Source: an uncultured delta proteobacterium
GTDB lineage: Bacteria > Myxococcota_A > Polyangia > Palsa-1104
Direction: 5' to 3'
NCBI GenBank assembly: GCA_963785725.1
Contig: CAWAWS010000039.1
Location: forward strand, 32,001-96,000
Length of the DNA stretch: 64,000 nt
Part shown: positions 615 to 35,178 of the stretch, piece after piece
Layout: each line of letters begins with the position of its first letter
Numbering within the stretch: the first letter of the stretch is position 1
Translations under genes and position numbers: made by a program
The notes under the pieces: generated by a model
What the model saw: only the letters and a program-made list of their open reading frames with translations
The model's database searches: none
What the model was told of the DNA's origin: nothing

Positions 615-1146
615 GTGTGCGAGCTTGGAGACTTCGAGGCTCGTGCCCTCTTGGAGGCGCTGGATCGTCGAAGAGTGGAGGAGGAACTGAGTTGGCCTCA
701 GGTTGCCGAAGCGATATGGGCGCAGTCCTACGAGCTCAACGACCGTCGTCACGACCACCCCATCGCCGTCGAGACGATTATCGGAATGCAGAAGCGGAAC
801 AACATCTCCTGCCAGCATGCACTGTTCATGCTCCGCTGGATCGGTCGCGCCCCCGAGGAGCTCATTGCACATCCCGTCGAGGGCAGCATTGGGGTTGCAC
901 TCCCAGCCGCCGGACCGGACCGTCGACTCCGTTGGAACCTGGGTGCACTCTACGAGGCTATGGACGCCCATCGTCGCGAAGAGCGTCTCACTTGGAACGC
1001 GTTGGCGGACCTGCTGTGACTGCACCCACAGCCAATTGACTGGCATCAAGAGGGCCCGATTCGCCGTCGGAATGCGCCTCGCCATGCGCATCACCCAGTG
1101 GCTGGCGCTTCCAGCCTCAGAGTTCATCTACGCAGCCCGTTGGTAG
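615..1146 (+). CDS. Hypothetical protein with two HTH-like repeats (frameshift near 1016-1019)
   Basis: ORF 615..1019 (LLEALDRRR..LSW / LYEAMDAHRR..LTW internal repeat) continues in the 703..1146 frame (DCTHSQLTGIKRARF...AARW). Confidence 0.55.
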
Positions 1147-1175
1147 TCGCCTCCGCCCGGCCTAGGTAGGGCACC
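1146..1175 (+). repeat. Cassette-junction hairpin site copy
   Basis: gtcgcctccgcccggcctaggtagggcacc; overlaps TAG of upstream gene; bulged C after GT. Confidence 0.6.
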
Positions 1176-1278
1176 GATGGCCCTGGTGATTCCCCCCTCG
1201 TACTGTGATGTCATGGACTGCGCAATACCCGGACCCGATGACTGAGCACATCGAGAGAGCTCAGGAAGGACGAAGCTC

Positions 1279-2139
1279 ATGAGTGAGATGATGCCGGCTG
1301 CATTCCTCGGGCACGGGAGCCCGATGAACGCGTTGGATCACAACGGCTACACCGAAGCGTGGCGTGCATTTGGGGAATCGGTACCACGACCTCGTGCGAT
1401 CCTGGCTGTCTCCGCACATTGGTACGTCAACGCGTCGGCCGTTACGGCCATGAAACAACCTAAGACCATCCACGACTTCTATGGGTTCCCCGATGAGCTC
1501 TTCGCGGTGCAGTATCCCGCCGCTGGCGACCCCGGCCTTGCGGAGGAGGTGGCCGAGGTGGTCAACCCCACCTGGATCGGCTTGGACCACGACAGCTGGG
1601 GCATTGACCACGGCGCCTGGTCGGTCCTCGTGCACGCGTTCCCTCAAGCCGACATTCCCGTCGTCCAGCTATCGATCAATGCAGAAAGGCCACTCGAGTA
1701 CCACTTCGAACTCGGGGCGAAGCTCGCACCGCTGCGTCGACGCGGCATCCTCATCGTCGCCAGCGGCAACGTAGTCCACAATCTGCGTCGCATCGACTGG
1801 AACCAGCCCGACGGCGGGTTCGATTGGGCTCATCGCTTCGATGACGACGCTCGTGAACACATGACCACATCACCGGCAGGGATTCTTGGCCTGCGCGATC
1901 ACCCTGATTTCCCGAACGCGGTTCCCACGCCCGACCATTTCCTCCCGCTCCTGTATCTCGCGGGACTGGCCGCGGCGACGGGATCCATCACCGACGTGCT
2001 CGTTGACGGCTACGCCTATGGATCGCTGTCGATGACGGCCTTCACGCTCGATGCCAATTGCCCGCAGCAAGGGCGTTCTGGCCCTGCCGCCCCGCTGCCA
2101 AGTCCTCATTTGGTCCCGACGGACGACACCAACACGTAG
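1279..2139 (+). CDS. ygiD: 4,5-DOPA dioxygenase extradiol / LigB-family dioxygenase
   Basis: [35 protein letters not shown] and PTPDHFLPL motifs. Confidence 0.9.
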
Positions 2140-2335
2140 GGAGCACCTCCGAACACAAGACACTTGTGCCCAGGTCAGCCTCGAGCTGGCGGGCCATGCA
2201 TCATCGAACTGAGGCAGGGTGACCGTCGTAGCCCGCTGCCTCCCTTCGTGGGACCGCTCACGCCACGGCCAAAAGACGACACCCAGGACGGCGTTGTCCG
2301 TGACCATCGGCGGATGCCACGTTCCGGGCGAGCCA

Positions 2336-2367
2336 GTTACGCCCCAGGCCCGGCGTTTAGGGGACAC
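2336..2367 (+). repeat. Cassette-junction hairpin site copy
   Basis: gttacgccccaggcccggcgtttaggggacac; contains the stop codon (2357-2359) of the minus-strand ASCH gene. Confidence 0.7.
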
Positions 2368-2803
2368 AGACAGTTGGCCCATCGTGCACTCGCTCAACGA
2401 CGCGAAATCGTTCAAGGACGACGGGGGTGTTGTCCTCGATCGTGAACGTGGGATCACCGAGCGCCTGCCGCATTTCGTCGCCGTGCCAACCCCTCTCGTG
2501 TGCGACCCGCCATTCGGCAACGGAGGTGAATCCCTCCGCTTCGTCAACGGCGTGACCTACGCCGACATCGCTGAGCGGGACCACGGCGACACTTGTGATC
2601 TCAATGACCGCGACCGGCCGGTTGTCTGAGTCAACCACCACCGATCGCCGGCCGGGTACTGGGAGTGGAGTGCCGTCCAGATCATATTCCCGCAGAAGAC
2701 TCGTCGTCGCGACCTTTTGACCACCGAGCACAGCGGACACCAGCGCATCTCGCAGAGGCCCCGGGAATGCAAACTCAGTAAGGGGCAGGTTCTCGTGAGT
2801 CAC
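2357..2803 (-). CDS. ASCH domain protein
   Basis: EFAFPGPLRDALV..GQKVATTSL, HAVDEAEG, VVLERF motifs; GTG start 7 nt after TACCGT. Confidence 0.85.
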   Translation of the reverse strand: MTHENLPLTEFAFPGPLRDALVSAVLGGQKVATTSLLREYDLDGTPLPVPGRRSVVVDSDNRPVAVIEITSVAVVPLSDVGVGHAVDEAEGFTSVAEWRVAHERGWHGDEMRQALGDPTFTIEDNTPVVLERFRVVERVHDGPTVCVP

Positions 2804-2824
2804 GCAGCCCACGGTACCGCGGGC

Positions 2825-2852
2825 TGCGCTCCGAACTGGTGTACTGGGGCAT
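2825..2852 (+). repeat. Cassette-junction hairpin site copy
   Basis: tgcgctccgaactggtgtactggggcat, just upstream of the ASCH gene start. Confidence 0.55.
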
Positions 2853-2901
2853 TTAGCCGCTCTGGTCACGGCGGGAAGGGACACATCAGGCAGCACCAAT
2901 A

Positions 2902-2932
2902 GTGTCGCCCCAGCCCGGCATTCGGGGACACC
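2902..2932 (+). repeat. Cassette-junction hairpin site copy
   Basis: gtgtcgccccagcccggcattcggggacacc; GTGTC(g)CCC pairs with GGGGACAC, one bulge. Confidence 0.75.
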
Positions 2933-3002
2933 TTCGGGACCTCAACGCGTCGGTTCGTTCGATGAAAACGGCCGGTTGGAGGGAGCGGTGCAAGATGACC
3001 GA

Positions 3003-3998
3003 CTACGGCACGACCTTTGCTCCACCAATGGGCACGATATCGACGCGATAGATAGCTTCCGACTCATGCCTTAGGCCCGAAACAGTGATGTCGCGAACGA
3101 GTGAGGTGACCTGATCTCCGCGTAGGTTGTCGTCGATCTCAAGGTGGGCGATCACCCAAAGTCGGTTTGGACCGACGAACGTGACGAGCAGCTCGCGAAT
3201 GGCGGTCACTCCAGGGTACCCAAGGAGAAACGTCCGGAACGCCTCCTCGTCAGTCGGTTGGAATGGCTGGGTAACCGGTGGCAACACCCAGCGCCTGGGG
3301 GGCTGCGGAGCCGGGGAGGTGAGCAACCAGGCGCCGACCAGGAAATCGTGACTGCGTTGGATGAGCCGACCCCCGGTATGGATGAGCATCACTCCGATGA
3401 GCACGGCAACGATCCCCTGGGGGATCGACGATCCGGTGATCTGATTGAGGCCCAAGGCGGCGAACGCCATCAAATCTCCCAGGACTGACACCGAATCTTG
3501 CATAAACACGGTCCTCAGACTGGGGTCGGACGTCGCCTGGGACTCGCTGAGGAGACTCACGTTCCGGCGGCGCGCTCGGTTGCTCATCTGACCGGCGGAC
3601 TGGCGAAATGAAGTCAGATCAAAGACAGTGGCGATCGCAAGCACGACATAGGCCACGACGAATCGAGAGGTCACGCTTGGGTGGATCAGCTCTTCGATAC
3701 CCTCGCGCAAGGAGAACAGCGCACCGGCAACCAGCACACCGAGTGCCACAAGCAGCGTCCAAAAGTAGATCTCCCGCCCGTAGCCCAACGGATGTCGGTC
3801 GTCGCGATCTCGGGTGCTGCGGTACTGAGCGATGACGAGGAAGACACCGGTGGCGACATCGGTGAGTGAGTGCGCGGCCTCGGCTGCCATTGCGGCTGAA
3901 CCCGTCAAGACCGCGGCGCCGGCCTTGGCGAGTCCGATCCCGAAGTCCGCCGCTAGAGCTACCCAAATGGTCCGTGTGGTGCTTTCGTTTGACATCAT
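3003..3998 (-). CDS. Cation diffusion facilitator (CDF) family transporter
   Basis: TGSAAMAAEAAHSLTD, HPLGYGRE, multiple TM segments, C-terminal cytoplasmic domain. Confidence 0.88.
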   Translation of the reverse strand: MMSNESTTRTIWVALAADFGIGLAKAGAAVLTGSAAMAAEAAHSLTDVATGVFLVIAQYRSTRDRDDRHPLGYGREIYFWTLLVALGVLVAGALFSLREGIEELIHPSVTSRFVVAYVVLAIATVFDLTSFRQSAGQMSNRARRRNVSLLSESQATSDPSLRTVFMQDSVSVLGDLMAFAALGLNQITGSSIPQGIVAVLIGVMLIHTGGRLIQRSHDFLVGAWLLTSPAPQPPRRWVLPPVTQPFQPTDEEAFRTFLLGYPGVTAIRELLVTFVGPNRLWVIAHLEIDDNLRGDQVTSLVRDITVSGLRHESEAIYRVDIVPIGGAKVVP

Positions 3999-4094
3999 CC
4001 GGCCCTTCTTGGGATCGCCTTGATCTTCGGGGGTCACAGGGTCATCGTAGAAAGGCGCCGAGGGCGGATACCGGTATCCCCCTTGTGCCGCAGG

Positions 4095-4124
4095 GTGTCA
4101 CCCGAGCCCGGCGTTCAGGGCTAC
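4095..4124 (+). repeat. Cassette-junction hairpin site copy
   Basis: gtgtcacccgagcccggcgttcagggctac, 8 nt from the PPOX gene stop; 4085-4101 matches 26389-26405 at 16/17 nt. Confidence 0.7.
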
Positions 4125-4132
4125 TAAATCAA

Positions 4133-4570
4133 TCAACTTGCGACATCTGCCGCTGACACGATCCGATCTGGGTGGAGTCGGACGAGAAGCTCTCCCTCGA
4201 CACCGTTACGAGCGCCGAATTCGTCGGCCCGACTCTTTCCCATGTAGCGGCCGCCGATGATTGTGGCCCACCTGCCAACCTCTTCTAGGTCTTCGGAAAG
4301 AACTACAGACCCTTCGATCGTTACGAACGAATACGGAGCTCGATCATCTTGGACGCAAAGAGCGGCAAGGTGCGTTCGGGCGAGGTTTCGACCCTTCACG
4401 GTATCTCTGCCTGTATTGAAGACGATGTCCCCGTTGTCGTCGGTCACAAACCAAACTGGAGCGACGTGTGGCCGGCCATCGGCGCGGGTGGTGGCGAGCG
4501 TCCCTGGGCGAGCTGGGTGAGACGCAAGAAAGCTATTCACTTCGTGGTTAGTCATCAGATGGTAGGCCAT
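4133..4570 (-). CDS. PPOX-class F420-dependent oxidoreductase
   Basis: LATTRADGRPHVAPVWF, FNTGRDTVKGRNL, GGRYMG..FGARN motifs. Confidence 0.88.
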   Translation of the reverse strand: MAYHLMTNHEVNSFLASHPARPGTLATTRADGRPHVAPVWFVTDDNGDIVFNTGRDTVKGRNLARTHLAALCVQDDRAPYSFVTIEGSVVLSEDLEEVGRWATIIGGRYMGKSRADEFGARNGVEGELLVRLHPDRIVSAADVAS

Positions 4571-4660
4571 CAAGCCGTTCTAGCGCGGGGACGTTCGGAC
4601 GTGTCGCTTCCGCAAACTAGGGCCACTCGGGCACCCAATGACTGGCCGACAAGTGTGGAA

Positions 4661-4696
4661 GTGTCCCACCCTCCCTGCTGCAATGTACTGGGCTAG
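4661..4696 (+). repeat. Cassette-junction site, degenerate copy
   Basis: gtgtcccaccctccctgctgcaatgtactgggctag; right arm GTACTGGGCTAG intact. Confidence 0.5.
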
Positions 4697-4789
4697 TCAA
4701 CGACCCCACCGATAAATCGCCTCAGCGCGCTCAGGTAGCCGCCAGTGCCCGAGAGGCGGACGAGCTAGTCGCCGCTGGCCGCTTCCTGG

Positions 4790-5056
4790 TTAGTCTTTGA
4801 GTATGACGTTGTGAACTTCCGTGAGCTCGTCAACCTTGACACCCGGGACGTTCGGCTTCACATTGTTGCCGAACCAGTTCTGGAAGTCGTCACGGGTCTC
4901 CCATATCTCAGATACGTGAAACTCGCCGTCTCTCAGGAAGGCTACGTGGGCGACGAAACCCGCCGCGGCCAGAAGAGGGGGCGTCAGATGCTCTGAGACC
5001 TTGTCGTACGAATCCGTCGTCATTCCTGAGACAGACAGCCTCGCCAATACCGACAT
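4790..5056 (-). CDS. Small dimeric alpha/beta-barrel (ABM-like) protein
   Basis: 88 aa; GF..H....G.F.V.EIWE...DF pattern shared with 28053 and 29909. Confidence 0.6.
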   Translation of the reverse strand: MSVLARLSVSGMTTDSYDKVSEHLTPPLLAAAGFVAHVAFLRDGEFHVSEIWETRDDFQNWFGNNVKPNVPGVKVDELTEVHNVILKD

Positions 5057-5387
5057 GTTCGCTCCTCAGGCTCGTGGCTCATGTACTGCGAAATGGACCC
5101 TACTCATATGAACCACCTCATGCACCAGGTGTTTCAGGTGCATCCACTTGTGGGCAAATCTGGGTGAACTTCGGTCGAGATTATTAGCTGCCCCAGTTGT
5201 GCCTGCCGTCCCACCTTCCCCGCGATGTGGGGCAAGCGGGAACATTTCGCTGTGGAGGTTGCTGACGGCCGAAGTGCGACCGCCAGAGCTCAAATTCCTC
5301 CAAGTCAGGCGTATCGATTCCCCCAGCGAGTCGGCGGAGGTATCACCCAATTCCCGTTCTGACTCAAAAAAGCATGGAGCCACGACC

Positions 5388-6464
5388 ATGGCCAATTTGA
5401 GCTTGTCCAATCGACCTGCACGCATTGTTCGGGTAACGGTGTTGATTGTAGGGATCCTGACAATAGGGGCGCTGCTTGGCATTGGAGGAGTGAAGGCTGC
5501 CCACGAGCTCCACGGCCCGCCACCTCCGCCGGTCGCTCAGTACTCGGCAGGCTACGGCCTCGATGGACCGGTAGCAGCGTCGATGGTGGGTTCTGACCTC
5601 TTTGTTGCGAATGAGTCGGGAAACTCCGTGACCGAAGTCAACGCCTCGTCCGGCGCTCACGTCGCAACGATTGCCGGCCGTTCCTTTGGATTGGACCAGC
5701 CAAGGGCGATTATTTCCGACGGACCCGCCCTGTTCGTTGCCAACGGTGCCAGCAATACAGTCACCGAGATTGATCCCACCAACCGCTCTCTCATCCGAAC
5801 TATCTCAGGGTTTTCTGATCCCCTTGCCCTCGCGGCCGAGAGCGCACGCATATATGTCCTGAACGGCACCGGGTCAGTTACAGAGGTGTCCGCAAGAACG
5901 GGCAGTCTTCTTGGAGTTGCCTCGGGTAACCAGTTTGGATTCAGCACGCCCGGGGGGATTGTTGCGGCTGGTGACCATCTGTTCGTGACAAACGAAGCCG
6001 CAAACTCCGTCACCGAGATCAACGATCGATCAATGAAGTTGGTGACCATATTGCAGGGGCCTAGTTACAAGTTCCGCAAGCCGACGGGAGCAGCCGTCGT
6101 AGGCGGTGACTTGTGGGTGACGAACCAAACGGGTGACTCGGTCACGGAGATCGCGACCAACACAGACGAGGTGACGCGAGTGGTAATCGACCACACGAAT
6201 CTCCCGACTCCAGGACCGATCGCCGTTGGCGACGGATACGTGTTTACCGTCAGCCCACCCGGAAACTCTCCCATGGTGAGCCAAATAACATCCACCGATG
6301 GAGCCGTTGCCTGGATGATGTGCAATACCAACGGTGCGTATCTGTTCAATGACCCTCAGGCCGCGGTTGTGGCGGGCTCGAGCCTTTGGGTAGTGAGCAA
6401 GGGAGGCAACTCCCTCACGCAGATGAACACCGATTCTGGAGCGCTCATTCGCACCATCTCGTAG
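5388..6464 (+). CDS. Secreted or membrane-anchored YncE/NHL-type beta-propeller protein
   Basis: N-terminal TM helix; repeated LFVAN...NSVTEI units. Confidence 0.75.
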   Translation: MANLSLSNRPARIVRVTVLIVGILTIGALLGIGGVKAAHELHGPPPPPVAQYSAGYGLDGPVAASMVGSDLFVANESGNSVTEVNASSGAHVATIAGRSFGLDQPRAIISDGPALFVANGASNTVTEIDPTNRSLIRTISGFSDPLALAAESARIYVLNGTGSVTEVSARTGSLLGVASGNQFGFSTPGGIVAAGDHLFVTNEAANSVTEINDRSMKLVTILQGPSYKFRKPTGAAVVGGDLWVTNQTGDSVTEIATNTDEVTRVVIDHTNLPTPGPIAVGDGYVFTVSPPGNSPMVSQITSTDGAVAWMMCNTNGAYLFNDPQAAVVAGSSLWVVSKGGNSLTQMNTDSGALIRTIS

Positions 6465-6549
6465 CTGGCTGCGCACCACCGCACCTGCCATTGCCTGTAA
6501 CCGAGCGGGACTTCTTTTGCTCCTAGGACTATCCCCACGGTGCCTGCAT

Positions 6550-6582
6550 GGTGCGCCCATCCCGGCAGCGAACTGGGCTACC
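6550..6582 (+). repeat. Cassette-junction hairpin site copy
   Basis: ggtgcgcccatcccggcagcgaactgggctacc; GGTG(c)GCCCA pairs with TGGGCTACC. Confidence 0.75.
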
Positions 6583-6644
6583 CCCGACCCTGAGGGCAGG
6601 CCGCCAGCTCGATCCCGCCGCTCTGACCACGCGAGGATGGTCCC

Positions 6645-7184
6645 GTGACGCCGGTGGTTCTGATTCGTCACGCCGAGCCGCTCATGACCGGAGAGACGCC
6701 GGGAGCCGAGTGGCCTCTGACCGAAGAGGGCAGGAAAGAGGCAGCCGCGCTGGGAAGGAGTCTCACCCGCCGATCTGCGAGCACAATCGTCTTGACGAGT
6801 CCTGAGCGCAGAGCCCGCGAAACTGCTGCGCTGTCCCTCCCTTCAGTGGTCGCGGAGATCAGGGATCAGCTCAGGGAGGTGATGAAACCGTGGTATGCCT
6901 CAGCCGCCGAGCACACGAACGCCGTAGCAAGAAACCTGAAGGGCGAAACGGTTGAGGGATGGGAACGTCGTGAAGACGTGATCAGCCGGATTGCGCTACT
7001 GAAGCCCGACTTTGGATCCTCAAAGCACCTTGTTTTGGTGAGCCACGGCTTGCTCCTCACGACTTGGCTTGACCACGAGATAGGACTGAGCGATCCCTTG
7101 TCGTTTTGGTCCGAGCTAAGGATTCCCGACGCTTGGGCGGTCGATTTCGAGGACAAGTCGCTTGAGCGGATCGCTGACCGTTAA
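6645..7184 (+). CDS. Histidine phosphatase (phosphoglycerate mutase) family protein
   Basis: LIRHAE, SPERRARETA, LVSHG motifs. Confidence 0.85.
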   Translation: MTPVVLIRHAEPLMTGETPGAEWPLTEEGRKEAAALGRSLTRRSASTIVLTSPERRARETAALSLPSVVAEIRDQLREVMKPWYASAAEHTNAVARNLKGETVEGWERREDVISRIALLKPDFGSSKHLVLVSHGLLLTTWLDHEIGLSDPLSFWSELRIPDAWAVDFEDKSLERIADR

Positions 7185-7273
7185 GTAGCGACCGCTTTGG
7201 AATTAGGAGCAATCTGGGTGAGGTCTTGGGCCTGCACCAACTAGCTTCTCCCACACGGATCTGAGAGGAGCGA

Positions 7274-7948
7274 GTGGTGAAGGTCGTTGTGGGGGAGATA
7301 CTCCCCCTTGCATTGGTGGTGACGATCTCGCCGATCAACGTCATTCCCGTCATCCTCCTTCTCTTCACCAAGCGACCCTTGGTCAATGCGTCGTCCTTCT
7401 TCGTCGGGTTCGTTGCCGGCGTCGCAGCCATGCTCGTGGCGCTGGTCGCTATCGCAGAGGCAGTGGATCTCTCTCCGGGGTCTGGGCATTCGACGTGGGT
7501 GGCCGTGCTGAAAATGGGCCTCGGTGCGTATCTGTTGGTGGCCGCCGTCCGAAAGTTCCGCGGGCGATCCCGAGCTGGTGGCGAGGGTGCAATGCCCAAG
7601 TGGATGGATGGGATTGCTGCGTTTGAGCCCGGACGGTCCTTGGGAACGGGTCTGGCCCTGGGTTCCGTCAATCCGAAGAACGTGGTCGTCGGTTTGGCTG
7701 CTGCAGCGACCATCGCATCTGAGGCAGGCTCACGCGGTCAGCAGATTGGTGCGATCGCCATCTACGTGTTGGTCGCTGTCTTGGGGGTGGCGGCCCCGAT
7801 CGTGGTAACGGCTTTCCTCGGAGATCGATCACCGAAAGTCCTGGAGGGGTGGAAGGTCTGGCTGACGCAGAACAATGCGACTGTCATGTCGGTGCTGTTC
7901 CTGATCTTTGGTGTGGTCCTGATTGGCCAGGGTATCGAAGCCGCGTAG
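7274..7948 (+). CDS. GAP/Sap family membrane protein
   Basis: Hydrophobic protein; ISP..I.VILLL, NPKN, WLTQNNATVMSVL motifs. Confidence 0.8.
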   Translation: MVKVVVGEILPLALVVTISPINVIPVILLLFTKRPLVNASSFFVGFVAGVAAMLVALVAIAEAVDLSPGSGHSTWVAVLKMGLGAYLLVAAVRKFRGRSRAGGEGAMPKWMDGIAAFEPGRSLGTGLALGSVNPKNVVVGLAAAATIASEAGSRGQQIGAIAIYVLVAVLGVAAPIVVTAFLGDRSPKVLEGWKVWLTQNNATVMSVLFLIFGVVLIGQGIEAA

Positions 7949-7966
7949 CCCGGTCCCGTAAGGGCC
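7945..7966 (+). repeat. Cassette-junction site, degenerate copy
   Basis: gtagcccggtcccgtaagggcc overlapping the TAG of the GAP gene. Confidence 0.45.
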
Positions 7967-8188
7967 TAACGGCGACATCCCCTCCGGGCAGCAAGGATCG
8001 TCAGGGAAGGCCAGCGCTTGCAACGGGTCAATCGATCAACAGGTGCACGGTATTCGTTCGTCGCACTGTGCCAAGGCGGTGGAAGGGTCGTTCGGCCCAA
8101 TGAATGTTGCTTGCATTGTCGTCATCCTGGGTGACAGAGTTCGGTTACGGCGAGGAAGAGGCGGATGGGGACTCGAAGGCGAGTAGGG

Positions 8189-23357: not shown

Positions 23358-23359
23358 TG

Positions 23360-24828: not shown

Positions 24829-24934
24829 TACCTCTTGCGCCTACTCGACATAGCCCTTCTGGGTGCCTTTCGAGATCAACGCGGACGGTCTTCGTATAGC
24901 TGCCGTCAACAGTCAGGTTGAGGCGATACCTCTT

Positions 24935-25708: not shown

Positions 25709-25760
25709 GAGAGCGCCCTATCGGCACATCCCGGTCGCTCTGACCTGCCACCATGAATCC

Positions 25761-26285: not shown

Positions 26286-26397
26286 CCCAGGTTGGTCGGG
26301 CTGCGAGTCTGTACGAACAATCGGCATAGCCGACCGTCCGCAACTGCCGGTTACCGAGCGGGTCGACCCTTCCCCGCCCAGCCCGGAAGTGCCGCAG

Positions 26398-26432
26398 GGT
26401 GGCACGCTCCCGGCAGCGTACTGGGGGGCACC
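26398..26432 (+). repeat. Cassette-junction hairpin site copy
   Basis: ggtggcacgctcccggcagcgtactggggggcacc. Confidence 0.7.
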
Positions 26433-26454
26433 TGGACCAAGTCGGATTCAAGCA

Positions 26455-26835
26455 TCAGCTTCGAGGAGCGACGACGATGAGGGCGGACCCGAAATCGGAC
26501 AGCGTCCATGAGATCGGGGCCACGTACGACTTGCCGCTCGTGATTCCGTTAGGGAGCGCGAAGCGGACGACGTAGCCATCTCGCACTACCACTCGAGCTT
26601 GCGTGTCACGGGCTATAGAACCGGCCGGAGGATTGCCGCTTACTCCTTCACGGCTCACAGGCGCATAGACGATGACCTCGGGCAGCAGTGGAATGGACGG
26701 AATGGTGCAGATATACGTGCCACCGTGGACAGCTTCAATCTTGGCGTTCGTCAGAAGCCCAATCGGTGGGAGTCCAGCCACCCATGCGTAGCGGGCATCA
26801 AAGGGGTTACCCAGGAACAGGTTGTAGTTGTGGTT
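26455..26835 (-). pseudogene. 5'-truncated hypothetical gene fragment
   Basis: Open, protein-like frame ending ...WTLSDFGSALIVVAPRS*; its 5' end runs into the divergent sigma factor start with no credible start codon. Confidence 0.35.
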
Positions 26836-26869
26836 CACTCTATCGGTGGCACTTAGTCTGGGCACTGCC

Positions 26870-27865
26870 GTGACCACCGTCGTTGATCAGGATCTGGGCG
26901 ACCTCGAGCCCTATCGCCGCCCGCTGACCGCCTATTGCTACCGGATGCTTGGGTCCCCCCAAGACGCCGAGGATGCGGTGCAGGACACCTTCGTGCGGGC
27001 ATGGCGGGGCCTGGGGGGATTGGAGGACCGAACCGGGTTGCGCCCATGGCTGTATCGGATCGCTACGAACGTCTGCCTGGACATGGTGAAGGGTCGGGGA
27101 CGGCGCGCTCTGCCAATGGACCTCGCGCCGGCTAGCAGCGGGCGGCGATGGGAGTCTTCCCATGAGCTCGCTCTCGGCACCCCTCGCCCAGAGGCGACCT
27201 GGGTGCAGCCGATCCCCGACCACCTGGTCTCATCCCCGAACGCAGACCCGGCTGACGTCGCCGGGTTCCGAGAGTCGATCCGACTGGCGTTCATCGCCGC
27301 CCTCCAACACCTCATGCCCCGCCAGCGCGCCGTTCTGATCCTCCGTGACGTCCTGAGCTGGCGGGCTCACGAGGTGGCGACGCTGCTCGAGACCAGTGAG
27401 GACGCTGTCAACAGCACCCTGCGCCGTGCCCGGAGTGCCCTGGAGGCGGTCGACCCCGATGCCGTGCCGAGGGCGGCGACGGAGGCCGACCGTGAGCTCC
27501 TGTACCGCTACATCGAGGCATTCGAGCGCTACGACGTCGACTCGCTCGTGGCGCTGTTGCACGAAGACGCCAGTCTCAGCATGCCGCCCTACGAGCTGTG
27601 GCTCCGGGGCATCCCCGACATCCGTCGCTTCCTGGCCGCCCTGAAGGTCGAAGGCGGCCGCGACCAGGTAATCGAGGTCGCGGCCAATGGATGTCCGGCG
27701 CTGGCCGTATACCGATCTGCCGGCCCCTCCGGGGCGTTAGAACCATTCGAGATCCACGTGCTCGAGATCGCTGGCGGTCGCATTGTTGCGATTCACGCTT
27801 TTCTTGAACCGGCTCTATTTCCCGTCTTCGGACTCCCTCCGACGGCCGCACCGATCAGCGAATAG
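26870..27865 (+). CDS. ECF sigma-70 factor with SnoaL-like C-terminal extension (SigG-like)
   Basis: YCYRMLGS..DAEDAVQDTFVRAWR, WLYRIATNVCLD, QRAVLILRDVL, C-terminal DA..SMPP..W. Confidence 0.9.
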   Translation: MTTVVDQDLGDLEPYRRPLTAYCYRMLGSPQDAEDAVQDTFVRAWRGLGGLEDRTGLRPWLYRIATNVCLDMVKGRGRRALPMDLAPASSGRRWESSHELALGTPRPEATWVQPIPDHLVSSPNADPADVAGFRESIRLAFIAALQHLMPRQRAVLILRDVLSWRAHEVATLLETSEDAVNSTLRRARSALEAVDPDAVPRAATEADRELLYRYIEAFERYDVDSLVALLHEDASLSMPPYELWLRGIPDIRRFLAALKVEGGRDQVIEVAANGCPALAVYRSAGPSGALEPFEIHVLEIAGGRIVAIHAFLEPALFPVFGLPPTAAPISE

Positions 27866-28052
27866 GTGATGCCCACGTAGTCGGACTCGCCGAGTTCACC
27901 GCCCAAGCCTCGATGACGGAGTTTGGGGGCCGCCGGGATGCTGTCAGAGACTTCTCGAGCCGCGACGACTTTTGTGCTCCGGCGCAGTTGTACTCAGTGG
28001 GGAGCCGCGAAGGACGCCCTTCCCCGAGAACAGACCCAAGGAGGCAACACCG

Positions 28053-28325
28053 ATGCCTGTACTCATGATTGCCGAACAACCAAACATGGACGAGGCGACC
28101 TATGCCTCGATGTTGGAGCCGCTGATGCCGTTGCTGCGTTCGACGACGGGCTTCATTTCTCATGCCGGAGGTCAGAGTCCCGCCGGCGGAATGCGCATCA
28201 TCGAGATCTGGGAGTCCGAGGCGGACCAGCAGAAGTTTTTTGACGAGAACCTGAAGGCAGATCTTCCACCTGGACTTGTACCTGACCTCACGTATTCGGA
28301 GCTACACGCCGGATTCACTCGGTAG
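28053..28325 (+). CDS. Small dimeric alpha/beta-barrel (ABM-like) protein
   Basis: GFISHAGG..GGMRIIEIWESEAD; RBS AAGGAGG. Confidence 0.65.
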   Translation: MPVLMIAEQPNMDEATYASMLEPLMPLLRSTTGFISHAGGQSPAGGMRIIEIWESEADQQKFFDENLKADLPPGLVPDLTYSELHAGFTR

Positions 28326-28327
28326 GC

Positions 28328-28360
28328 GTAGCCTCGTCGCTTCGAGCCTGTCGAGGGGCC
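28328..28360 (+). repeat. Cassette-junction site, degenerate copy
   Basis: gtagcctcgtcgcttcgagcctgtcgaggggcc, 2 nt after the stop codon. Confidence 0.4.
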
Positions 28361-28685
28361 GATCAGAGGTGGAAGGGACACGAGCGCGCATGGCGGCGAG
28401 CCCCTTCCACTTCGGACGGCTCCTGCCAACGGCCCCTCTGTCCAACCTCAGCGGGAATCAGAACCCGCACGGGACCCGTTCTGAGGCAATGTTTTGCCAA
28501 CTCGAACCTACCCCCAAGCCCACATCGTTGGAACTAGTCGATGCAAAAATTATTGGGTCGACGCCGAGGCGCTGTCAGTCGAACTCGTCGAAAGGTTCGT
28601 CCAGTTCGACCCGGGTCACGTCTTGGCGCATAACCGGCAGCGGAGGCAGTCGATCTTCAGACTTGCGGCTACAGGTTGGCGAACT

Positions 28686-29057
28686 TCAGCGGCGAGCGAG
28701 CCGACGGCCGCTTTCCGTGCTGATCGGCGTGTAGTTCATCTCAAAGTGGTGATAGAGCTTTGATTCGTCGGCTTGCGAGAGTTCCTCGCCATGCATCTCG
28801 ATGTGGGGCGCAGACTTAACCTGCTCCTTCGTTACCGCGACCTGCAGGTCATCGGGACCGATCTGGATGTTGCCCAAAGGAACGAAGGCCAGGTGTCGGT
28901 CGAGAAAGCCCTCTTTGACAGTCGCAAACATCGGCTCGTCGGTCTCGACGTCAACGTAGACATCTTGCAGCTTTCCGATTTTCCCGCCGTTACGATCGAT
29001 CAGCATTTTGCCGTGCCATTCGGCCACATTCCATTGGGCTTCCTGATCGTCAGTCAT
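28686..29057 (-). CDS. PRC-barrel domain protein
   Basis: DRNGGKIGKLQDVYVD, FVPL, QVKSAP..ELS..DE..LY.HF; RBS GAGGAGG. Confidence 0.88.
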   Translation of the reverse strand: MTDDQEAQWNVAEWHGKMLIDRNGGKIGKLQDVYVDVETDEPMFATVKEGFLDRHLAFVPLGNIQIGPDDLQVAVTKEQVKSAPHIEMHGEELSQADESKLYHHFEMNYTPISTESGRRLARR

Positions 29058-29164
29058 AACAGCCTCCTCATCGTCTCTAAACACAGCCTACCGAGCGCAC
29101 TGTGTGCACATAGCAAAAAAAGCCCAGTGGAATCGGCTTGAAGTGCCGATCAGCCACCCTTGGC

Positions 29165-29198
29165 GACGCACCCCCTCCCGGCGTGCTGGGACACCCCC
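29165..29198 (+). repeat. Cassette-junction site copy
   Basis: gacgcaccccctcccggcgtgctgggacaccccc; core cctcccggcgtgctggg identical to the copy at 23336-23352. Confidence 0.7.
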
Positions 29199-29347
29199 GA
29201 AGGCAGCCGTCGTCGTGGCATTGTTATGCGGTGCTGGACTATTCGGGCGGCAGTCCGAAACGCATCGACATTGGTTTCATTCCGGCACCATCGGGTCCTC
29301 AGATGCACTTCTGGTAGGACGAGGAGGAGCACAGCTGCTTCATCATC

Positions 29348-29782
29348 ATGACCGAGTATGCCCCGGACATGGAGTCCCCAGATCGGGTTGAAACCGAGGC
29401 CCTGATCAGTGGAGTGGGCTGCGTTCAGAGCGTCTTCGGCTATCCGAACGAAGAGGCCTTCTGGAAGGACCCGAGAGGTGACTTCCGCCATGGTTGCTTT
29501 GAAATCGACGGATCAAAGTGGCATGAGAACATCGACGCCTACAACCTCAGATCGTTTGGGAACCACTATTGGCGTGACAACAGTCCTGCGCTGCATCACT
29601 ACTTCGTCGGATCCAAGGATGCCTCGTGTCAGTTCCTGGCAAGGAGTCTGGAGGTCGAACTCTTCCCAGGAAGGTCTCGCGGAGACATCATTCGGACCGT
29701 CTACGGACGACAGCGTGAGCAGTTCACAGAAACCCTGAGACGCATCAGAGAGATGCAACAGCACTCGCAGCCGAGCGAGTGA
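29348..29782 (+). CDS. Hypothetical protein
   Basis: 144-aa ORF with protein-like composition (FGYPNEEAF..LHHYFVGSKD); start uncertain; TGA lies inside a junction site. Confidence 0.55.
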   Translation: MTEYAPDMESPDRVETEALISGVGCVQSVFGYPNEEAFWKDPRGDFRHGCFEIDGSKWHENIDAYNLRSFGNHYWRDNSPALHHYFVGSKDASCQFLARSLEVELFPGRSRGDIIRTVYGRQREQFTETLRRIREMQQHSQPSE

Positions 29783-29807
29783 CCTCGTCCCGGTGAACTG
29801 GGGCACC
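29779..29807 (+). repeat. Cassette-junction hairpin site copy
   Basis: gtgacctcgtcccggtgaactggggcacc; GTG(a)CCTC pairs with GGGGCAC; overlaps TGA. Confidence 0.75.
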
Positions 29808-29908
29808 TCGGAGGTCGGTGAACAGCTCGACATTCAGAGCCAACCTAGGGGTATGGTCCCGCTTGGCAGTGGGGATTGGCCGAGCACAACGTACGGAGGT
29901 GGTGCCCA

Positions 29909-30184
29909 ATGGCACTTGGAATCTATTTCGCACACGAAGGCTTCACACCGGAGAAGTACGGCAGTGCAATCGAGCAGCTGGAGGCCGCCGGTGCGGGCAA
30001 GCCGAAGGGGCGTACTTACCACTGCGCGCTCGAATCGGACGGTGCAATCCAGGTCTTCGACATCTGGGAGTCCCAGGCGGACTTCGATGCTTTCGGGCCG
30101 ACGCTGATGCCGATCCTCACCGAGTTGGGAGTCGGACTAAAGGAGCCGATGGTCGCCACTGTTCACAACGTGATAACCGGCTGA
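29909..30184 (+). CDS. Small dimeric alpha/beta-barrel (ABM-like) protein
   Basis: GRTYHCAL..DGAIQVFDIWESQADF; RBS GGAGGT. Confidence 0.65.
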   Translation: MALGIYFAHEGFTPEKYGSAIEQLEAAGAGKPKGRTYHCALESDGAIQVFDIWESQADFDAFGPTLMPILTELGVGLKEPMVATVHNVITG

Positions 30185-30224
30185 GTCTTCGCAACTGAGT
30201 AGTCAGTCGGCGGATTGGTTCATT

Positions 30225-30265
30225 GGTCGCCACCCCCGAGCCGGCGGCGGTGAATGGGGGCACCC
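30225..30265 (+). repeat. Cassette-junction hairpin site copy
   Basis: ggtcgccacccccgagccggcggcggtgaatgggggcaccc; abuts the stop codon at 30266; bulged C after GGT. Confidence 0.65.
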
Positions 30266-30664
30266 CTACTTCGTCAGTTCCCGCACCTCCGGCACGGTCG
30301 TGACTACGAGGTCCACCAGCTCCCAGAGAGAGGGCAGGTCGGGTTGGTCCAACGCCTGCGCTCTCGTTAGACGCTGGCCGTAGTAATCCGCCTCGCCCTT
30401 TCCTGCCACCAGAGCATCCACAAGTCCCGCTCCCTCGCTGTTGATACGGCAGGAAAAAGTGACGTGGTCGGCAAACGGTTCCTCCCATGAACCAAAGGTG
30501 GCATCCAGCCAGACTTCGTCCTTCGGGTGGCCATGACACACGGCACTTACGACCGAATAGGCGTCCCCACTCTGAGTGGCGAAGACGACCACCCGCTTGT
30601 AGTTGCGACCGCATTCCGCACACGCCTCGTCCTGGACCTGGCGATCACTGAGGTCGATGGACAT
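30266..30664 (-). CDS. Hypothetical protein with N-terminal CxxC
   Basis: CAECG, CHGH; ATG 7 nt after TACAGT. Confidence 0.6.
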   Translation of the reverse strand: MSIDLSDRQVQDEACAECGRNYKRVVVFATQSGDAYSVVSAVCHGHPKDEVWLDATFGSWEEPFADHVTFSCRINSEGAGLVDALVAGKGEADYYGQRLTRAQALDQPDLPSLWELVDLVVTTVPEVRELTK

Positions 30665-31003
30665 CACAGCAACTGTATTTCGGAATGTCTGTCGACCCTT
30701 GTGGCCGATGGCTAATCCTCTGGCTCCACCAGCGCCAAGGCATCACTCACCGCCCGTGTCGCTCTGTCCCACGAACGCCGCGCTCCCGCTACGTCTTCGT
30801 TCTCGCCGGGCAGTCGGCCCTCTAACTCGATGAGGGCGCCCTGGGCGTCGATCAGGAGGTCAGCAAGGCGCTGCTGCTGCTGAGTCATGGACCGATGGTA
30901 CGCCTTCGTACGTCTCGTTGATGTCGGTGCTTCACCGTCTCAGTCGAGCCGACAGGTCCCACACCCGGCGAACGAGGATGCACTGTGTGCGATGCTCTGA
31001 CTC

Positions 31004-31681
31004 GTGCGACGTGCTGTCCCGTACCTGCTGCTGGGATTGTTGACGCTCCTAGTCGCAGCGGCGGTCGGAATCGGCTTGCGGGACCAGCCGAACGCGACCA
31101 ACGGCGCCGCTACGAATGGTGTCGGAGACGCAGCGGCATCGCCAATCACAAATCCAACTCCGCTCACCATTCCGACCACAACGACCGTGCCCCCGGGCGC
31201 TGTCGTGTCATCGACGAATATTGCACCCTGTCGGAGCGCAGCCGTCCAGATCACCACTCCTGTGCATTTCGGAGCGGCAGGAACGCAAGTCTTATATCTA
31301 CAGCTCGTAAACGTGGGCAGTATTCCCTGTTCGCTTGAGGGATATCCCAAGGTGTTTGGCTTGAACTCGGCTGGTCTGCCGGTCGCGCAGGCTGTTGAGC
31401 ACGACTTGGGTATTGCGTGGGACTCTAAGTACCCTCAACCACCCATTGTCGTACTTGCTCCGGGCGAGGCGGCACATGCGACGGTGTTCGGGAACGACTA
31501 CGACTTCTACGGCGGCGTGGACGGTGCTGCGAACTGTCCGTCTTACCTAGCCTTATCGGTCACGCTTCCCGGCGATGACGTGGCAAAAGTCATCTCGATG
31601 ACCAACTACGGCGGCAGCCCGGGGTTTCCCAGCTGCGGAGGTGAATTCAGCGTCAACTTCGTCAGGCCATTCACGCAGTGA
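31004..31681 (+). CDS. Secreted DUF4232-like protein
   Basis: Signal/TM segment, Thr/Pro linker, C....GAAG..LVNVG..PCSLEGYP, VLAPGE. Confidence 0.75.
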   Translation: MRRAVPYLLLGLLTLLVAAAVGIGLRDQPNATNGAATNGVGDAAASPITNPTPLTIPTTTTVPPGAVVSSTNIAPCRSAAVQITTPVHFGAAGTQVLYLQLVNVGSIPCSLEGYPKVFGLNSAGLPVAQAVEHDLGIAWDSKYPQPPIVVLAPGEAAHATVFGNDYDFYGGVDGAANCPSYLALSVTLPGDDVAKVISMTNYGGSPGFPSCGGEFSVNFVRPFTQ

Positions 31682-31704
31682 GGAGGACGGCCAACCGCCG
31701 CTCC

Positions 31705-31736
31705 GGTAACCGCCCCGTCCCCGCGACTGGGATACC
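31705..31736 (+). repeat. Cassette-junction hairpin site copy
   Basis: ggtaaccgccccgtccccgcgactgggatacc; followed by cccgaggcag, similar to the tail of the 29165 copy. Confidence 0.65.
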
Positions 31737-31765
31737 CCCGAGGCAGTAGTGGCACACTTGCGGAC

Positions 31766-32986
31766 ATGGTCCAAATGATCTCCGGAACGCACCTGCTCGA
31801 CCCCTCCGTGATCGCTGAGCCGTACGGGTTCTACGAGGAGCTGCGATCCGAAGCGCCAGTCTGGGAAGTACCCGGCGCTGGGATCTTCACGGTGGCCACA
31901 TACCAGCTCCTCGCTGAAGCCGCTGCCCGAGTGGAGGACTTTTCGTCCAATCTGAACTGCCTCTTGTACAAAGACGCCCAGGGAATGCCCTGTCGGTTCT
32001 CGTTTGGCGATACGGGAGTCCAAGCGCTGGCCACGGCGGACCCTCCGATGCACGCACTGCACAGAGGCACGGTCTTTCCTGAACTCGTTGCCAAGCGCAT
32101 GGCTGCTCTAGAACCCGACGTGGTAGAGATCGCCGAGGAGTGCGTGAGCCAAGCACTCAACGAAGGATCCGTGGACTTCATGGGCGCTATCGGCAACGTC
32201 GTACCCATCAAGATGATCAGCCGGCTCATCGGTTTCCACGACAGTGACCTCGAGCAGTTGTTGCGTGCGGCCTTCGACTCGACCGCCATGCTGGGATCGA
32301 CCCTTTCCTACGATGAGTTGGTCGCTCACATCGCCCGGACCGGTGAAATCGAGGGGTGGGTATCTGGCCAGCTCTCAGCCGCCATGAACGAGCCGTCCCA
32401 TGACCTTCTTGGAGCCGTCGCCGAAGGTGTCAAGAATCAGGCGTTCTCCGAGGTCGAGGCCGTCGTCATCCTCCACACCCTGCTGAGCGCTGGTGGAGAA
32501 TCCACGACAAGCCTGATCGGGAACGCTGTGCGCATCCTGGCTGAAAATCGAGAGCTTCAGAGTCAACTACGTGCGAATCCTGAGTTGATCCCCATGTTCG
32601 TGGAGGAGGCGCTGAGGCTCGAGCCACCATTCCGTTACCACATGCGTTACGTGCCGAATGACACCTCCCTCGGAGGGGTGGAGATCCCCGCCGGGGCAAC
32701 GGTCCTACTTCTGTGGGGTGCGGCCAACCGTGACGCCGCAATGTTCGATCACCCCGGGTCGATCGACCTGACCCGGGAGGCGCCACGGCGACATGTGGCA
32801 TTCGGTCGAGGCATCCATCACTGTGTCGGGGCGCCCCTGGCTCGGGTCGAGGCGAGGAACGTGCTCAGCGTTCTGCTTGCGCGAACGAGTGACATCACCC
32901 TCGATCCTCGTCGGCCGCCGAGATGGGTGAATAGCCTGATGGTCCGCCGTCACGAGGAACTGCCGGTACGACTTCTGGCCGCCTGA
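31766..32986 (+). CDS. Cytochrome P450
   Basis: AGGESTT I-helix, EEALR (ExxR), FGRGIHHCVG heme-binding motif. Confidence 0.95.
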   Translation: MVQMISGTHLLDPSVIAEPYGFYEELRSEAPVWEVPGAGIFTVATYQLLAEAAARVEDFSSNLNCLLYKDAQGMPCRFSFGDTGVQALATADPPMHALHRGTVFPELVAKRMAALEPDVVEIAEECVSQALNEGSVDFMGAIGNVVPIKMISRLIGFHDSDLEQLLRAAFDSTAMLGSTLSYDELVAHIARTGEIEGWVSGQLSAAMNEPSHDLLGAVAEGVKNQAFSEVEAVVILHTLLSAGGESTTSLIGNAVRILAENRELQSQLRANPELIPMFVEEALRLEPPFRYHMRYVPNDTSLGGVEIPAGATVLLLWGAANRDAAMFDHPGSIDLTREAPRRHVAFGRGIHHCVGAPLARVEARNVLSVLLARTSDITLDPRRPPRWVNSLMVRRHEELPVRLLAA

Positions 32987-33293
32987 GGGCTGCCCCCATG
33001 GTGCCTGATTGTGGGCAGGCAACTATCGCGAGCACTCCGCGAAGATGAGCCCTCCAAGTCCTGGTGTTTCGGCGGGCTAAGCCACATCCCAAGACTGGGG
33101 CAACTGTCGACACAACGGCACGACTTCGGGAGGGATTCGACCACAATCCCATTACCTCTACCGGCCGTCCCTCACATGCAGGGCCGCCGCGTATCGGGGG
33201 GGCGCCGGCGGCACCGTCCTACACTCGCGCGACGTCCCGCGGTCGGCGTCCTCCAGTCGGTACTCTTCGGTCCGGAGCCGCCCGTCCGAGTCG

Positions 33294-34748
33294 TTGATGG
33301 AGGTGCTGATGGTCGTCCGTCGAAAACACCTAGGCATGGCACTCACCTCGGCACTGGCGTTGCTCGTCGCCGCGCTCATGCTCCCGCTGCCCGGACCGTC
33401 GCCGCCAGCCACGGCGGCGACGGTCGAACTCCCCGCGTATTCGGGGGACGGCCCCGGCCAGGTGACATGCTCGCTTTCTTTCTACGCCTCCTTCTCGCCG
33501 CCCCTAACCCGCACCGGTGGCGGCACGGGCCCTTCGGCGGTGAGCGGGGGGACGTTGTCGGGGTGCACGGCCACCACGAACTCGGTCACGGTCACGGACG
33601 CCCGGTTCACCGGGAGCTACGCCACGAGCCCGCTGACCTGTCAGGACACCTTCACCGATGCCGCCGACACGTTGCACCTGACTTGGTACGGCACCGTGAA
33701 CGGCCCGGTCGCCACCTATCCCGACGCGATCGACTACGCCGGCAACGCCCGCTTCGCCACGAGCACCGTCACCGGTGGCATGGCCACCGGGTCATTCGCC
33801 GGCCCCGTCGTCGAACAGCTCCAGCCGCCCGCCGCGGGCACCGTCGCCGCGGACTGCGCCCTGCGCTCGGGCCTACGCAAGATCCTCATCAGCGGCACGA
33901 TCACCCTCGGCTCGCCCACGCCCGCCACGGTCCTGCCTACGTCGTGGTGGGTGCCGCCGCTGGGTGTGGTGCCCTGGCAGTGGGAGCTCGACCACACCCT
34001 CGACCTCTCCAATACGACGGACATGGGGACGAACGACACCCTGCCGAACGGGCAGCCGGCGCCCGATCCGGTGGTCTACGACATCGACGCGATCGACACA
34101 CCCGCCAGCACGGTGGCCGCTCTCCACGCCATGGGTGACCACGCAATCTGCTACACGGAGGTCGGGTCGGCCGGGAACTATTACGCAGCCTCCGAGGAGG
34201 GGCTGGCGACGAGCTACTTCCAGCAGTTCAAAGATGCTGGGGTCCTGGGCCGCAAGCTGAGCGACTACCCCGAGTACTTCTTGAACATCAACAGCCAGGC
34301 GACGCTCAACATTGTGGAGGACATGATCGCCCAACAGTGCTACGCCAAAGGGTTCGACGCGGTCGAGACCGACCTGGACGAAACGAACAACGAGAACGAG
34401 GGGAACACCGGCTTCACGATCACCGAGTCGGATGAGCAGAACTATTTGACGGCCCTGGCCGGCTTCATGCACTCGCTCGGCCTCGGCTGGATTGCCAAGA
34501 ATCTCGACGACACCGGTGACAACTTTGCGACGATCATGGAACCGCTCGCCGACGGCATGATCACCGAGCAGTGCAACCAGTACGACACCTGTGGGGCGCT
34601 GAGCGCCTACGTCGGGACGAAGGCCGTCTTCAACGCCGAGTACCCGCCGGAGACGACCTCGGAATTCTGCGTTTCAGACAACGCGCTTGGCTTCAACGGC
34701 GCGCTCTTCCCGGTCGCCCTCAACGGGCCGAGACACCCCTGCCAATGA
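33294..34748 (+). CDS. Secreted GH114-like endo-alpha-1,4-polygalactosaminidase with an extra N-terminal domain
   Basis: Signal peptide; WQWEL, VYDID, AICY...GS, KGFDAVETD, IAKN, EQC, VFNAEY motifs; start uncertain. Confidence 0.75.
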   Translation: MMEVLMVVRRKHLGMALTSALALLVAALMLPLPGPSPPATAATVELPAYSGDGPGQVTCSLSFYASFSPPLTRTGGGTGPSAVSGGTLSGCTATTNSVTVTDARFTGSYATSPLTCQDTFTDAADTLHLTWYGTVNGPVATYPDAIDYAGNARFATSTVTGGMATGSFAGPVVEQLQPPAAGTVAADCALRSGLRKILISGTITLGSPTPATVLPTSWWVPPLGVVPWQWELDHTLDLSNTTDMGTNDTLPNGQPAPDPVVYDIDAIDTPASTVAALHAMGDHAICYTEVGSAGNYYAASEEGLATSYFQQFKDAGVLGRKLSDYPEYFLNINSQATLNIVEDMIAQQCYAKGFDAVETDLDETNNENEGNTGFTITESDEQNYLTALAGFMHSLGLGWIAKNLDDTGDNFATIMEPLADGMITEQCNQYDTCGALSAYVGTKAVFNAEYPPETTSEFCVSDNALGFNGALFPVALNGPRHPCQ

Positions 34749-35178
34749 CCTCGTCCGAGGGGATCGCCACCGGGTCGTGGGGTGCCCAACAAAGCCGGTT
34801 CCGTGAGGACTTGAGACGAACGAGGTGCTCGCTGGAAGACAGCGGACCGATGGAATCGGGTCCGCCAAACCGCGCCGAACGCGTCGGTCAGGGCTTCATC
34901 AACGAGGCCAGCTCCCAAGACCCCTAGTGGAGTTGTGCGCGTTGCGTCCGCTTAGGACCACTCACCCGTATCGGCGATCGCGCTGCGGTCAAGTCCGCCC
35001 CGGCTCCCGACTGCAACCGCCCCGCCGGGCGCCACGTCACGCTCCGATTAGACCAGCGGGTGCGCCCTTGGGCAGGAGACAACGAAGCTTCACACCTCGG
35101 GGGGTCCGGCCGCGGCACCGACCACGTTCCCCGGCGATCCCTAACGGTTTCTTCGGGCTCGAGCATCCGTCCACGGGC

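Follow-up and report, generated by a model that had tools for sequence, protein, structure and literature searches.

Which feature divides the genes of a low-GC genomic island into exchangeable units, and which enzyme would move them, is the question raised by a 64,000-nt stretch of contig C39 (C39:32001-96000 of genome G000; hereafter the window, whose positions are used unless a contig or locus is named). The flagged island (~1-35.5 kb; GC 0.60-0.66 against ~0.70) lies between pgi, which ends ~60 nt ahead of the window start, and fadD. Its cargo is unrelated and includes LigB, ASCH, cation efflux, PNPOx, VOC, GH5, MBL-fold, GNAT, extracytoplasmic function (ECF) sigma factor, PRC and P450 genes, among others. 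A preliminary description of the sequence had claimed that a motif in 18 clear and 13 weak copies delimits a cassette array, forming a site-specific gene capture or shuffling platform that is not an integron. That proposal held up, as the units shared with related genomes break at the core of the site and no attC was found in the island.

The tetranucleotide composition of the first 108 kb of C39, which include the whole window, is foreign to all remaining DNA of the bin. By its genes C39:1-108000 is Acidimicrobiales DNA inside the bin of another organism, with a likely chimeric contig or misjoin near C39:108-110 kb. Because this DNA is foreign to the bin, searches of the rest of the bin and of the relatives of the bin do not describe the host of the array. 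The fadD gene (35568-37244) has relatives with 67-95% identity at 79 loci, whose record titles are almost all Acidimicrobiales or Acidimicrobiaceae.

Exchange of units at the site cores

The site, as derived from 414 distinct junctions, is 28 bp long and consists of an 11-bp left arm, a 6-bp core (CCGGCG in type A) and an 11-bp right arm; type B sites carry another core. Related genomes were compared for units shared at 90% identity or more and flanked by different neighbours. Of the pairs with a common downstream unit, 17 of 18 lost their identity 3 nt or less from the A core, as did 13 of 15 pairs with a common upstream unit. The 119 shared-unit pairs were A-A (41 + 72) or B-B (2 + 4), with no A-B pair, and the two arms of a junction derive from different units. 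The 441 site-to-site intervals have a median of 755 bp. A called gene is present in 289 of them, 206 of which hold a single gene, with the two orientations almost equally represented (106 against 100).

The breakpoint check in related genomes that had been suggested for the motif gave the same result, with shared units ending at the core for six units of the window as well. Homologs of the MBL-fold cassette in two relatives begin at the 22562 core, and one of them ends at the 23340 site. The GNAT unit has 93-95% copies in three other species (L373-L375), all starting at A core 25689; two end in B core 26389 and one continues into the linker. Copies of the PRC unit (93-94%; L382, L386) end at the 29178 core, the unit 29790-30241 has a homolog in G292 (L146) with both ends identical, and 93-95% homologs of the segment 30689-30969 stop at the core of the A site at 30965. 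Homologs of the P450 gene (81-94%; L362, L364-L368, L370, L372) start near 31720 and end at or just before 33001.

Assembled contigs from public runs were compared with the window, each run sharing at most one third of the words of the stretch. Among the matches listed, the best 64 of ~1,760, some contigs diverge from the window at a core (2836, 23340, 26414 in two runs, 28638), and others do so elsewhere, for example at 12649, 22797 and 27875. As departures occur also away from the cores, they are weak evidence. The cassette sites are almost certainly real and, judged from the sequence comparisons, gene-sized units are swapped between arrays and species at the 28-bp junctions.

Anatomy of the site and two core classes

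A sequence-only covariance model gave 26-112 matches (E<=1) per genome in five relatives, arranged in strand-uniform clusters. At E<=0.01 the model matched 55 of the 101 genomes of the family and 29 of the 151 of the order, tallies in which G188, G234 and G250 are included. Neighbouring sites less than 3 kb apart lay on the same strand in 451 cases, compared to 15 on opposite strands. The site patterns were not found in the viral contigs searched. In L128, L132, L135, L136, L137, L122 and L239, the array is directed away from a tRNA gene and has its start 1-3 kb downstream of that gene.

The right arm has the consensus WWCKGGGNYAS, and the two arms are loosely inverted copies, symmetric about the 6-bp core. 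This 11-6-11 layout is that of tyrosine recombinase sites, and the site is best read as double-stranded with a central crossover, not as a hairpin. Core insertions are present in 50 of the 414 junctions (~12%), 30 of them of 3 nt, mostly AGC or AAT. An arm-only scan gave 537 hits, of which 282 had the core CCGGCG; the second commonest core was CGGCAC (35 hits, 35/35 on the opposite strand), which read along the array is GTGCCG, the type B core. The polarity of the nearest A site is shared by 86 of 87 B sites. Forty-six B sites sit 13-20 nt before an A core with a near-constant linker, and 40 are free-standing.

The motif had been described as a hairpin. Sites folding as single strands, in attC-like use or with an HUH nick in the loop, would tolerate variable core insertions through the loop or through one-strand exchange, and some copies do fold. 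However, the best z in the covariation test was 3.2 among 288 position pairs, with no consistent register. The arms do not covary in the 414 natural junctions, nor when paired within 247 cassettes circularised in silico, and the hairpin is therefore unsupported. The origin of the two arms of one junction in different units also speaks against folding, as do arrays on both strands at one locus, the lack of Y1 transposase (PF01797) matches in five array-bearing genomes (0/5) and a candidate enzyme that lacks the IntI insertion. Single-stranded use of the sites is considered very improbable.

A candidate recombinase where arrays diverge

Listing the tyrosine recombinases near sites in the genomes of relatives exposed a simple tyrosine recombinase of 303 aa, which at nine loci sits where minus- and plus-strand arrays part; one of its genes is located at L257:3529-4440 on the minus strand. 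When loci were chosen by this protein (at least 65% identity), a site was located within 1.5 kb in 23 of 28, whereas this was the case for 2 of 23 loci of a sister clade, 0 of 6 loci of distant homologs, 1 of 29 loci of other tyrosine recombinases and 5 of 67 windows taken upstream of fadD. The query locus had originally been reached via an array; the four loci from the class level were chosen blind, and each of them has sites. Upstream of the recombinase gene, 16 of 16 A sites point away from it. G234 supplies two of the 28 loci and one of the 20 genomes, and without it the counts are 21 of 26 for the loci and 14 of 14 for the upstream sites; G491 supplies one sister locus, which has no site. 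Beyond these counts and the E<=0.01 tallies, nothing depends on the unpublished genomes (G188, G234, G250 and G491). Among the family genomes a site hit is present in 19 of 20 with the gene and in 36 of 81 without it, and 10 of the 12 genomes with at least nine site hits carry the recombinase. In five genomes an ATAA-ended left arm followed by an A core is found 269-278 nt upstream of the gene.

Residues R158, K184, H246, R249 and Y281 of the recombinase are invariant, and H272 is nearly so. Against the IntI model TIGR02249 the protein scores 43 bits (cut-off 265) over residues 222-283 only, and it aligns to XerD without an insertion, i.e. without that of IntI. The nearest fold matches were XerA, XerD and the Brujita integrase, with a core-binding and a catalytic domain only; the AlphaFold model was mediocre (predicted local distance difference test, pLDDT, 64; predicted template modelling score, pTM, 0.44) and was used solely to confirm the fold. 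The recombinase was not found in viral contigs, nor in plasmids at E<=1e-40, and a 401-genome sample of the phylum contained 10 matching genomes, mostly with sister or distant homologs. An SOS-box motif lies upstream of 1 of 21 recombinase genes, and SOS control is thus unsupported. A convergent open reading frame (ORF) of no NCBIfam family often follows the recombinase (L257:2977-3480, L262:4238-5308, L266:10088-10528, L263:5017-5559) and could encode an accessory factor.

The sister clade (47-60% identity) has sites of its own with the core CTGCCG or GTGCCG. A leave-one-genome-out scan of 19 sister loci (238 kb) gave 31 intergenic hits pointing away from the gene and 1 toward it, and the sites of G409 and G299 have canonical ATAA-N6-TTATG arms. 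In a quick tree the candidate and sister clades each form a single well-supported group. In two distant homologs (42-44%; L290 and L295) the gene start is immediately preceded by one dif-like site.

It had been proposed that the enzyme is encoded outside the window and is a tyrosine, serine or HUH recombinase. The location was supported, as an array-tied tyrosine recombinase is present in relatives and none in the window. With regard to type, the tyrosine option stood; the HUH option was opposed by the Y1 result, and the serine option by the finding that serine recombinases (PF00239), present in three of five genomes, were not found in G127 and G229. The 28-bp junctions are probably recombined as duplex DNA by the 303-aa protein, a candidate assigned by association only, and its clade is quite likely to be the driver of the arrays.

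Other recombinases and site-targeting elements

The host enzymes XerC and XerD could instead move the cassettes, as for the pdif modules of Acinetobacter, which would make the 303-aa protein a frequent passenger. They were the sole tyrosine recombinases found common to all array-rich genomes searched, including G127 and G229, and the 11-6-11 geometry with two core classes matches pdif as described in the available part of PMC6449649. Nevertheless, ATAA..TTAT, given as the determinant of Xer binding and cutting in the accessible text of PMC11705084, is matched at 6 or more of 8 bases by only 9 of 648 A sites. Five complete genomes each have a host dif-like site with ATAA/TTATGT arms, separate from the cassette sites, and the core varies with the recombinase clade while array polarity reverses at the 303-aa gene. 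Movement by XerC and XerD is accordingly rated improbable.

An element of 2.46 kb that encodes two tyrosine recombinases and has inverted ends of the TTAT type was found between two copies of the 6-bp A core. A cores flank all four G043 copies examined and the copies in G273 (2), G281, G198 and G196; the two cores around the copies in G043h and L210 are not the same, which is the outcome expected of a crossover. Members of the family are located at L127:11410-13862 and L181-L210. If this element were the autonomous member of the system, its enzymes would serve all cassettes in trans. Its exact A-core insertion in at least five species and the related copies L186 and L188, which abut the B-core hexamer, are in keeping with such a role, as is the presence of a site hit in 13 of 13 genomes with a homolog of its second gene (13 of 101). 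Yet the element was not found in G045, G229, G277, G292, G205, G218, G199 and G213, its TTAT-type inverted-repeat ends are unlike the cassette arms, and it lies inside arrays in direct orientation, without arrays diverging from it. Since the element is rare (13 of 101 genomes) and missing from most site-rich genomes, it is read as a site-targeting passenger, and supply of the enzymes by it is judged very unlikely.

An IS110-family element inserts inside the B core, with both ends seen in six copies; members are located at L098:16200-17430, L108:18927-20170 and L134:7016-8250. Phage-type integrases and those typical of integrative and conjugative elements, which occur near some arrays, were rejected as candidates, being not common to the genomes and rarely having sites at the loci chosen by them (1/29). 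Two divergent tyrosine recombinases of G127 were also rejected, with no sites nearby. In G044 a minus-strand site and a plus-strand array have a large serine recombinase (L098:3328-4824) between them, which makes it the second type of gene seen where polarity changes. Recombinase trios are found between parts of insertion sequence-like transposase genes within arrays at L089:9261-12366 and L097:6107-8966.

Proposed mechanism

Recombination by the 303-aa enzyme is modelled on the chemistry of tyrosine recombinases, which is the basis for the tetramer and strand exchange step. A recombinase tetramer would bind the loose arms of two duplex sites and exchange strands across identical cores. Between A and A or B and B in direct repeat, circular cassettes would be released and accepted, and a unit bounded by A and B would need one exchange followed by another to move, as has been proposed for pdif modules with unlike cores in the available part of PMC11705084. 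The ATAA-containing site upstream of the recombinase gene would be a primary, attI-like site. Polarity would be set by the asymmetric core, and genes carried in either orientation would depend on promoters of their own. An array far from the recombinase, such as that of the window, would be an orphan or be served in trans.

Taken as a whole, the system has a little better than an even chance of being an independent Acidimicrobiia platform with one dif-like recombinase, outward arrays in both directions, duplex 28-bp sites and two non-crossing cores. Excision and natural exchange would let cassettes circulate between species together with site-targeting parasites, and clades with differing cores would trace a path from canonical ATAA-N6-TTAT to degenerate GC-rich sites.

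Several observations weigh against the proposed recombination of the sites by the 303-aa enzyme. Breakpoints lie 14-15 nt from the A core in 3 of 33 pairs, and the core insertions (~12% of sites) would not be tolerated by a strict two-strand exchange, though they may point to a one-strand exchange completed by replication. Downstream of the recombinase gene 11 A sites point away from it and 8 of 19 toward it, so that in some genomes the recombinase lies in the array like cargo. The five genomes with a clear attI-like site are close kin, and the counts across genomes include kin and are not independent. Searches for the gene gave no match in G213 or in G229 (29 site hits), and it was not found among the tyrosine recombinases listed for G127, a single-contig genome with an array of ~40 sites; G045 and G218 have only a fragment of it. 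Neither the window nor the 108 kb of available host DNA contains a recombinase, and C39 gave no PF00589 match.

Comparison with known systems

Integrons are the textbook gene-capture platform, and their attC sites end in RYYYAAC...GTTRRRY. The arrays resemble integrons and attC-site clusters that have no integron-integrase (CALIN), as described in the available text of Cury et al. 2016 (PMC4889954), in that a tyrosine recombinase gene has a primary-like site upstream and an array that reads outward from it, that single-gene cassettes could be excised between sites of like orientation, that some arrays have no enzyme close by, and that the cargo includes GNAT, VOC, ASCH and PNPOx. They differ in that attC is absent, the 28-bp site has no pairing signal, the enzyme lacks the IntI insertion, the two cores are incompatible, genes occur in either orientation and arrays extend on both sides of the enzyme. 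As the crossover lies in the centre of the site, each cassette bears one arm at each end, unlike that of an integron.

The pdif/xrs modules of Acinetobacter (accessible parts of PMC6449649 and PMC11705084) share the 28-bp 11-6-11 sites, two clusters of central regions, gene-sized modules between sites and units with unlike cores that are not excisable in one step. Here the arms lack ATAA/TTAT and are unlike the host dif, there are long runs of same-core direct repeats (the 451 same-strand neighbours against 15) and chromosomal arrays are tied to a dedicated recombinase, not to XerCD. A core-binding and a catalytic domain only are also typical of the simple tyrosine recombinases RIT, Tn554 TnpA and Brujita; among the subgroups in the available part of PMC8138268, IntI is the only one to which the building of cassette arrays is ascribed. 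The two-gene element of the present arrays is RIT-like; it targets the sites and does not define them.

IS1111-attC elements belong to the IS110 family and insert into cassette recombination sites. The IS110 element described above likewise inserts in the site, within the B core; its target differs in being a 28-bp duplex-type site and not attC.

No description of such a system was found in the literature, as far as sources were available in part, with subscription journals mostly uncovered and supplements excluded. It is possibly a gene-capture platform unlike integrons and of independent origin. If so, it would be a second solution to gene capture, in a phylum in which a 2016 survey (Actinobacteria; available part of PMC4889954) gave no complete integron, and would account for much of the turnover of accessory genes in the Acidimicrobiales of soil and peat. 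How ordinary gene ends turn into cassettes is called unknown for integrons in the same partial source; short duplex sites with loose arms suggest one way in which this could happen. Two orthogonal cores used by one small enzyme may be of use in DNA engineering, and the system is directly testable in the laboratory, as the enzyme is named, the site is 28 bp long and the crossover has been mapped.

Sites in the window

Type A and B sites in the window were called with a position-weight scan, using a model from 648 training sites that included those of the window. The scan gave 12 A sites and 1 B site, all on the plus strand, with none on the minus strand and none in the core half, while shuffled islands gave 0.3 sites per strand. 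As an independent replication, a model trained solely on the window copies was applied to the 79 relative loci (at least 7 bits; 694 kb scanned each for upstream and downstream), where it gave 27 plus-strand and 1 minus-strand hits upstream of fadD and 1 plus- and 3 minus-strand hits downstream. The absence of a comparable series from the core half, as the preliminary description had it, was thus reproduced, and the location of the motif at gene junctions, co-oriented whatever the orientation of the genes, was borne out for the island. The statement that all copies are on the plus strand agrees with the scan and fails for one B-like site with its core at 25722-25727 on the minus strand. This B-type site (25711-25738) is inverted and lies ~30 nt inside the GNAT cassette.

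Copy-by-copy scoring used a null with a 99th percentile of 5.2. Fourteen of the 18 copies described as clear scored at least 10. That at 31705, which scores 2.3 because of a 1-nt deletion, was upheld by a mapped homolog boundary, and 1146, 24769 and 25634 were marginal (4.6-5.5). Among the 13 weak copies only 4661 and 16651 were supported and 17749 was borderline; the other 10 were not, leaving ~6.6-16.6 kb without a supported site. The first inspection had overlooked three A sites (5219, 28634, 30965) and six B sites (4085, 5199, 24760, 26389, 29143, 33001). The view that the site is not attC was corroborated by zero RYYYAAC..GTTRRRY pairs on either island strand (2.2 expected per strand), and an Rfam search gave no credible match. 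Coordinates are given in Table 1.

Table 1. Location of the array, sites and cassettes in the window. Scores are those of the copy-by-copy scoring.
Feature	Position	Strand	Remarks
Cassette array without own recombinase (CALIN-like)	1146..33017	+	Low-GC island, pgi to fadD
Marginal type A site, core CCGGCC at 1157	1146..1176	+	Score 5.5
Type A site, core CCGGCG at 2350	2339..2367	+	Score 12.1; overlaps stop of ASCH gene (- strand)
Type A site, variant core CTGGTG at 2836	2825..2852	+	Score 18.1; one metagenome contig departs here
Type A site, core CCGGCA at 2915	2904..2931	+	Score 27.7
Linked double site, B core GTGCCG 4085, 17-nt linker, A core CCGGCG 4108	4074..4124	+	
Degenerate type A site, 6-nt core insertion (4674)	4663..4696	+	Score 18.3
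Linked double site, B-like core GTGCCT 5199, A core CCCGCG 5219	5188..5235	+	Overlooked in first inspection
Type A site at 6562, recurrent 3-nt core insertion	6551..6581	+	Score 20.2; begins histidine-phosphatase unit, 87% in G045
Type A site, core CTGGCG at 16663	16652..16679	+	Score 13.1
Type A site, core CCGGCG at 18293	18282..18309	+	Score 18.1; after VOC gene
Type A site, core CCGGCA at 20995	20984..21011	+	Score 10.2; between GH5 and cyclase genes
MBL-fold gene cassette, A cores 22562 and 23340	22551..23356	+	Homolog ends, contig departure at 23340
Linked double site, B core GTGCCG 24760 (left arm ends ATAA), 15-nt linker, weak A core CTGGCG 24781	24749..24797	+	
GNAT cassette, A core 25689 to B core 26389, 15-nt linker, A core 26410 (3-nt insertion)	25678..26429	+	
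PRC-barrel cassette, low-scoring A site 28634 (left arm ends GCATAA), B core 29143, A core 29178	28623..29194	+	
Cassette between A cores 29790 and 30241	29779..30263	+	G292 homolog, identical two ends
Type A site, core CCGGCG at 30965	30954..30981	+	Score 15.7; overlooked in first inspection
Cytochrome P450 cassette, A core 31720 (right arm 1 nt short) to B-like core GTGCCT 33001	31709..33017	+	

Surroundings of the array

The ORF at 561-1127, which adjoins the first site, was examined as a possible recombinase and rejected, as it does not encode one. A frameshift, which may be an error of the assembly, splits the pgi gene (C39:30194-31938). A strong type A site is located on the minus strand at C39:1158-1195, 31 kb ahead of the window, in another low-GC stretch at the start of the contig, and is perhaps the end of a second array. 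Within the core region of the window, a gene contains a 126-nt repeat in five copies (38721-39411), and similar repeats are found at 11238-11966.

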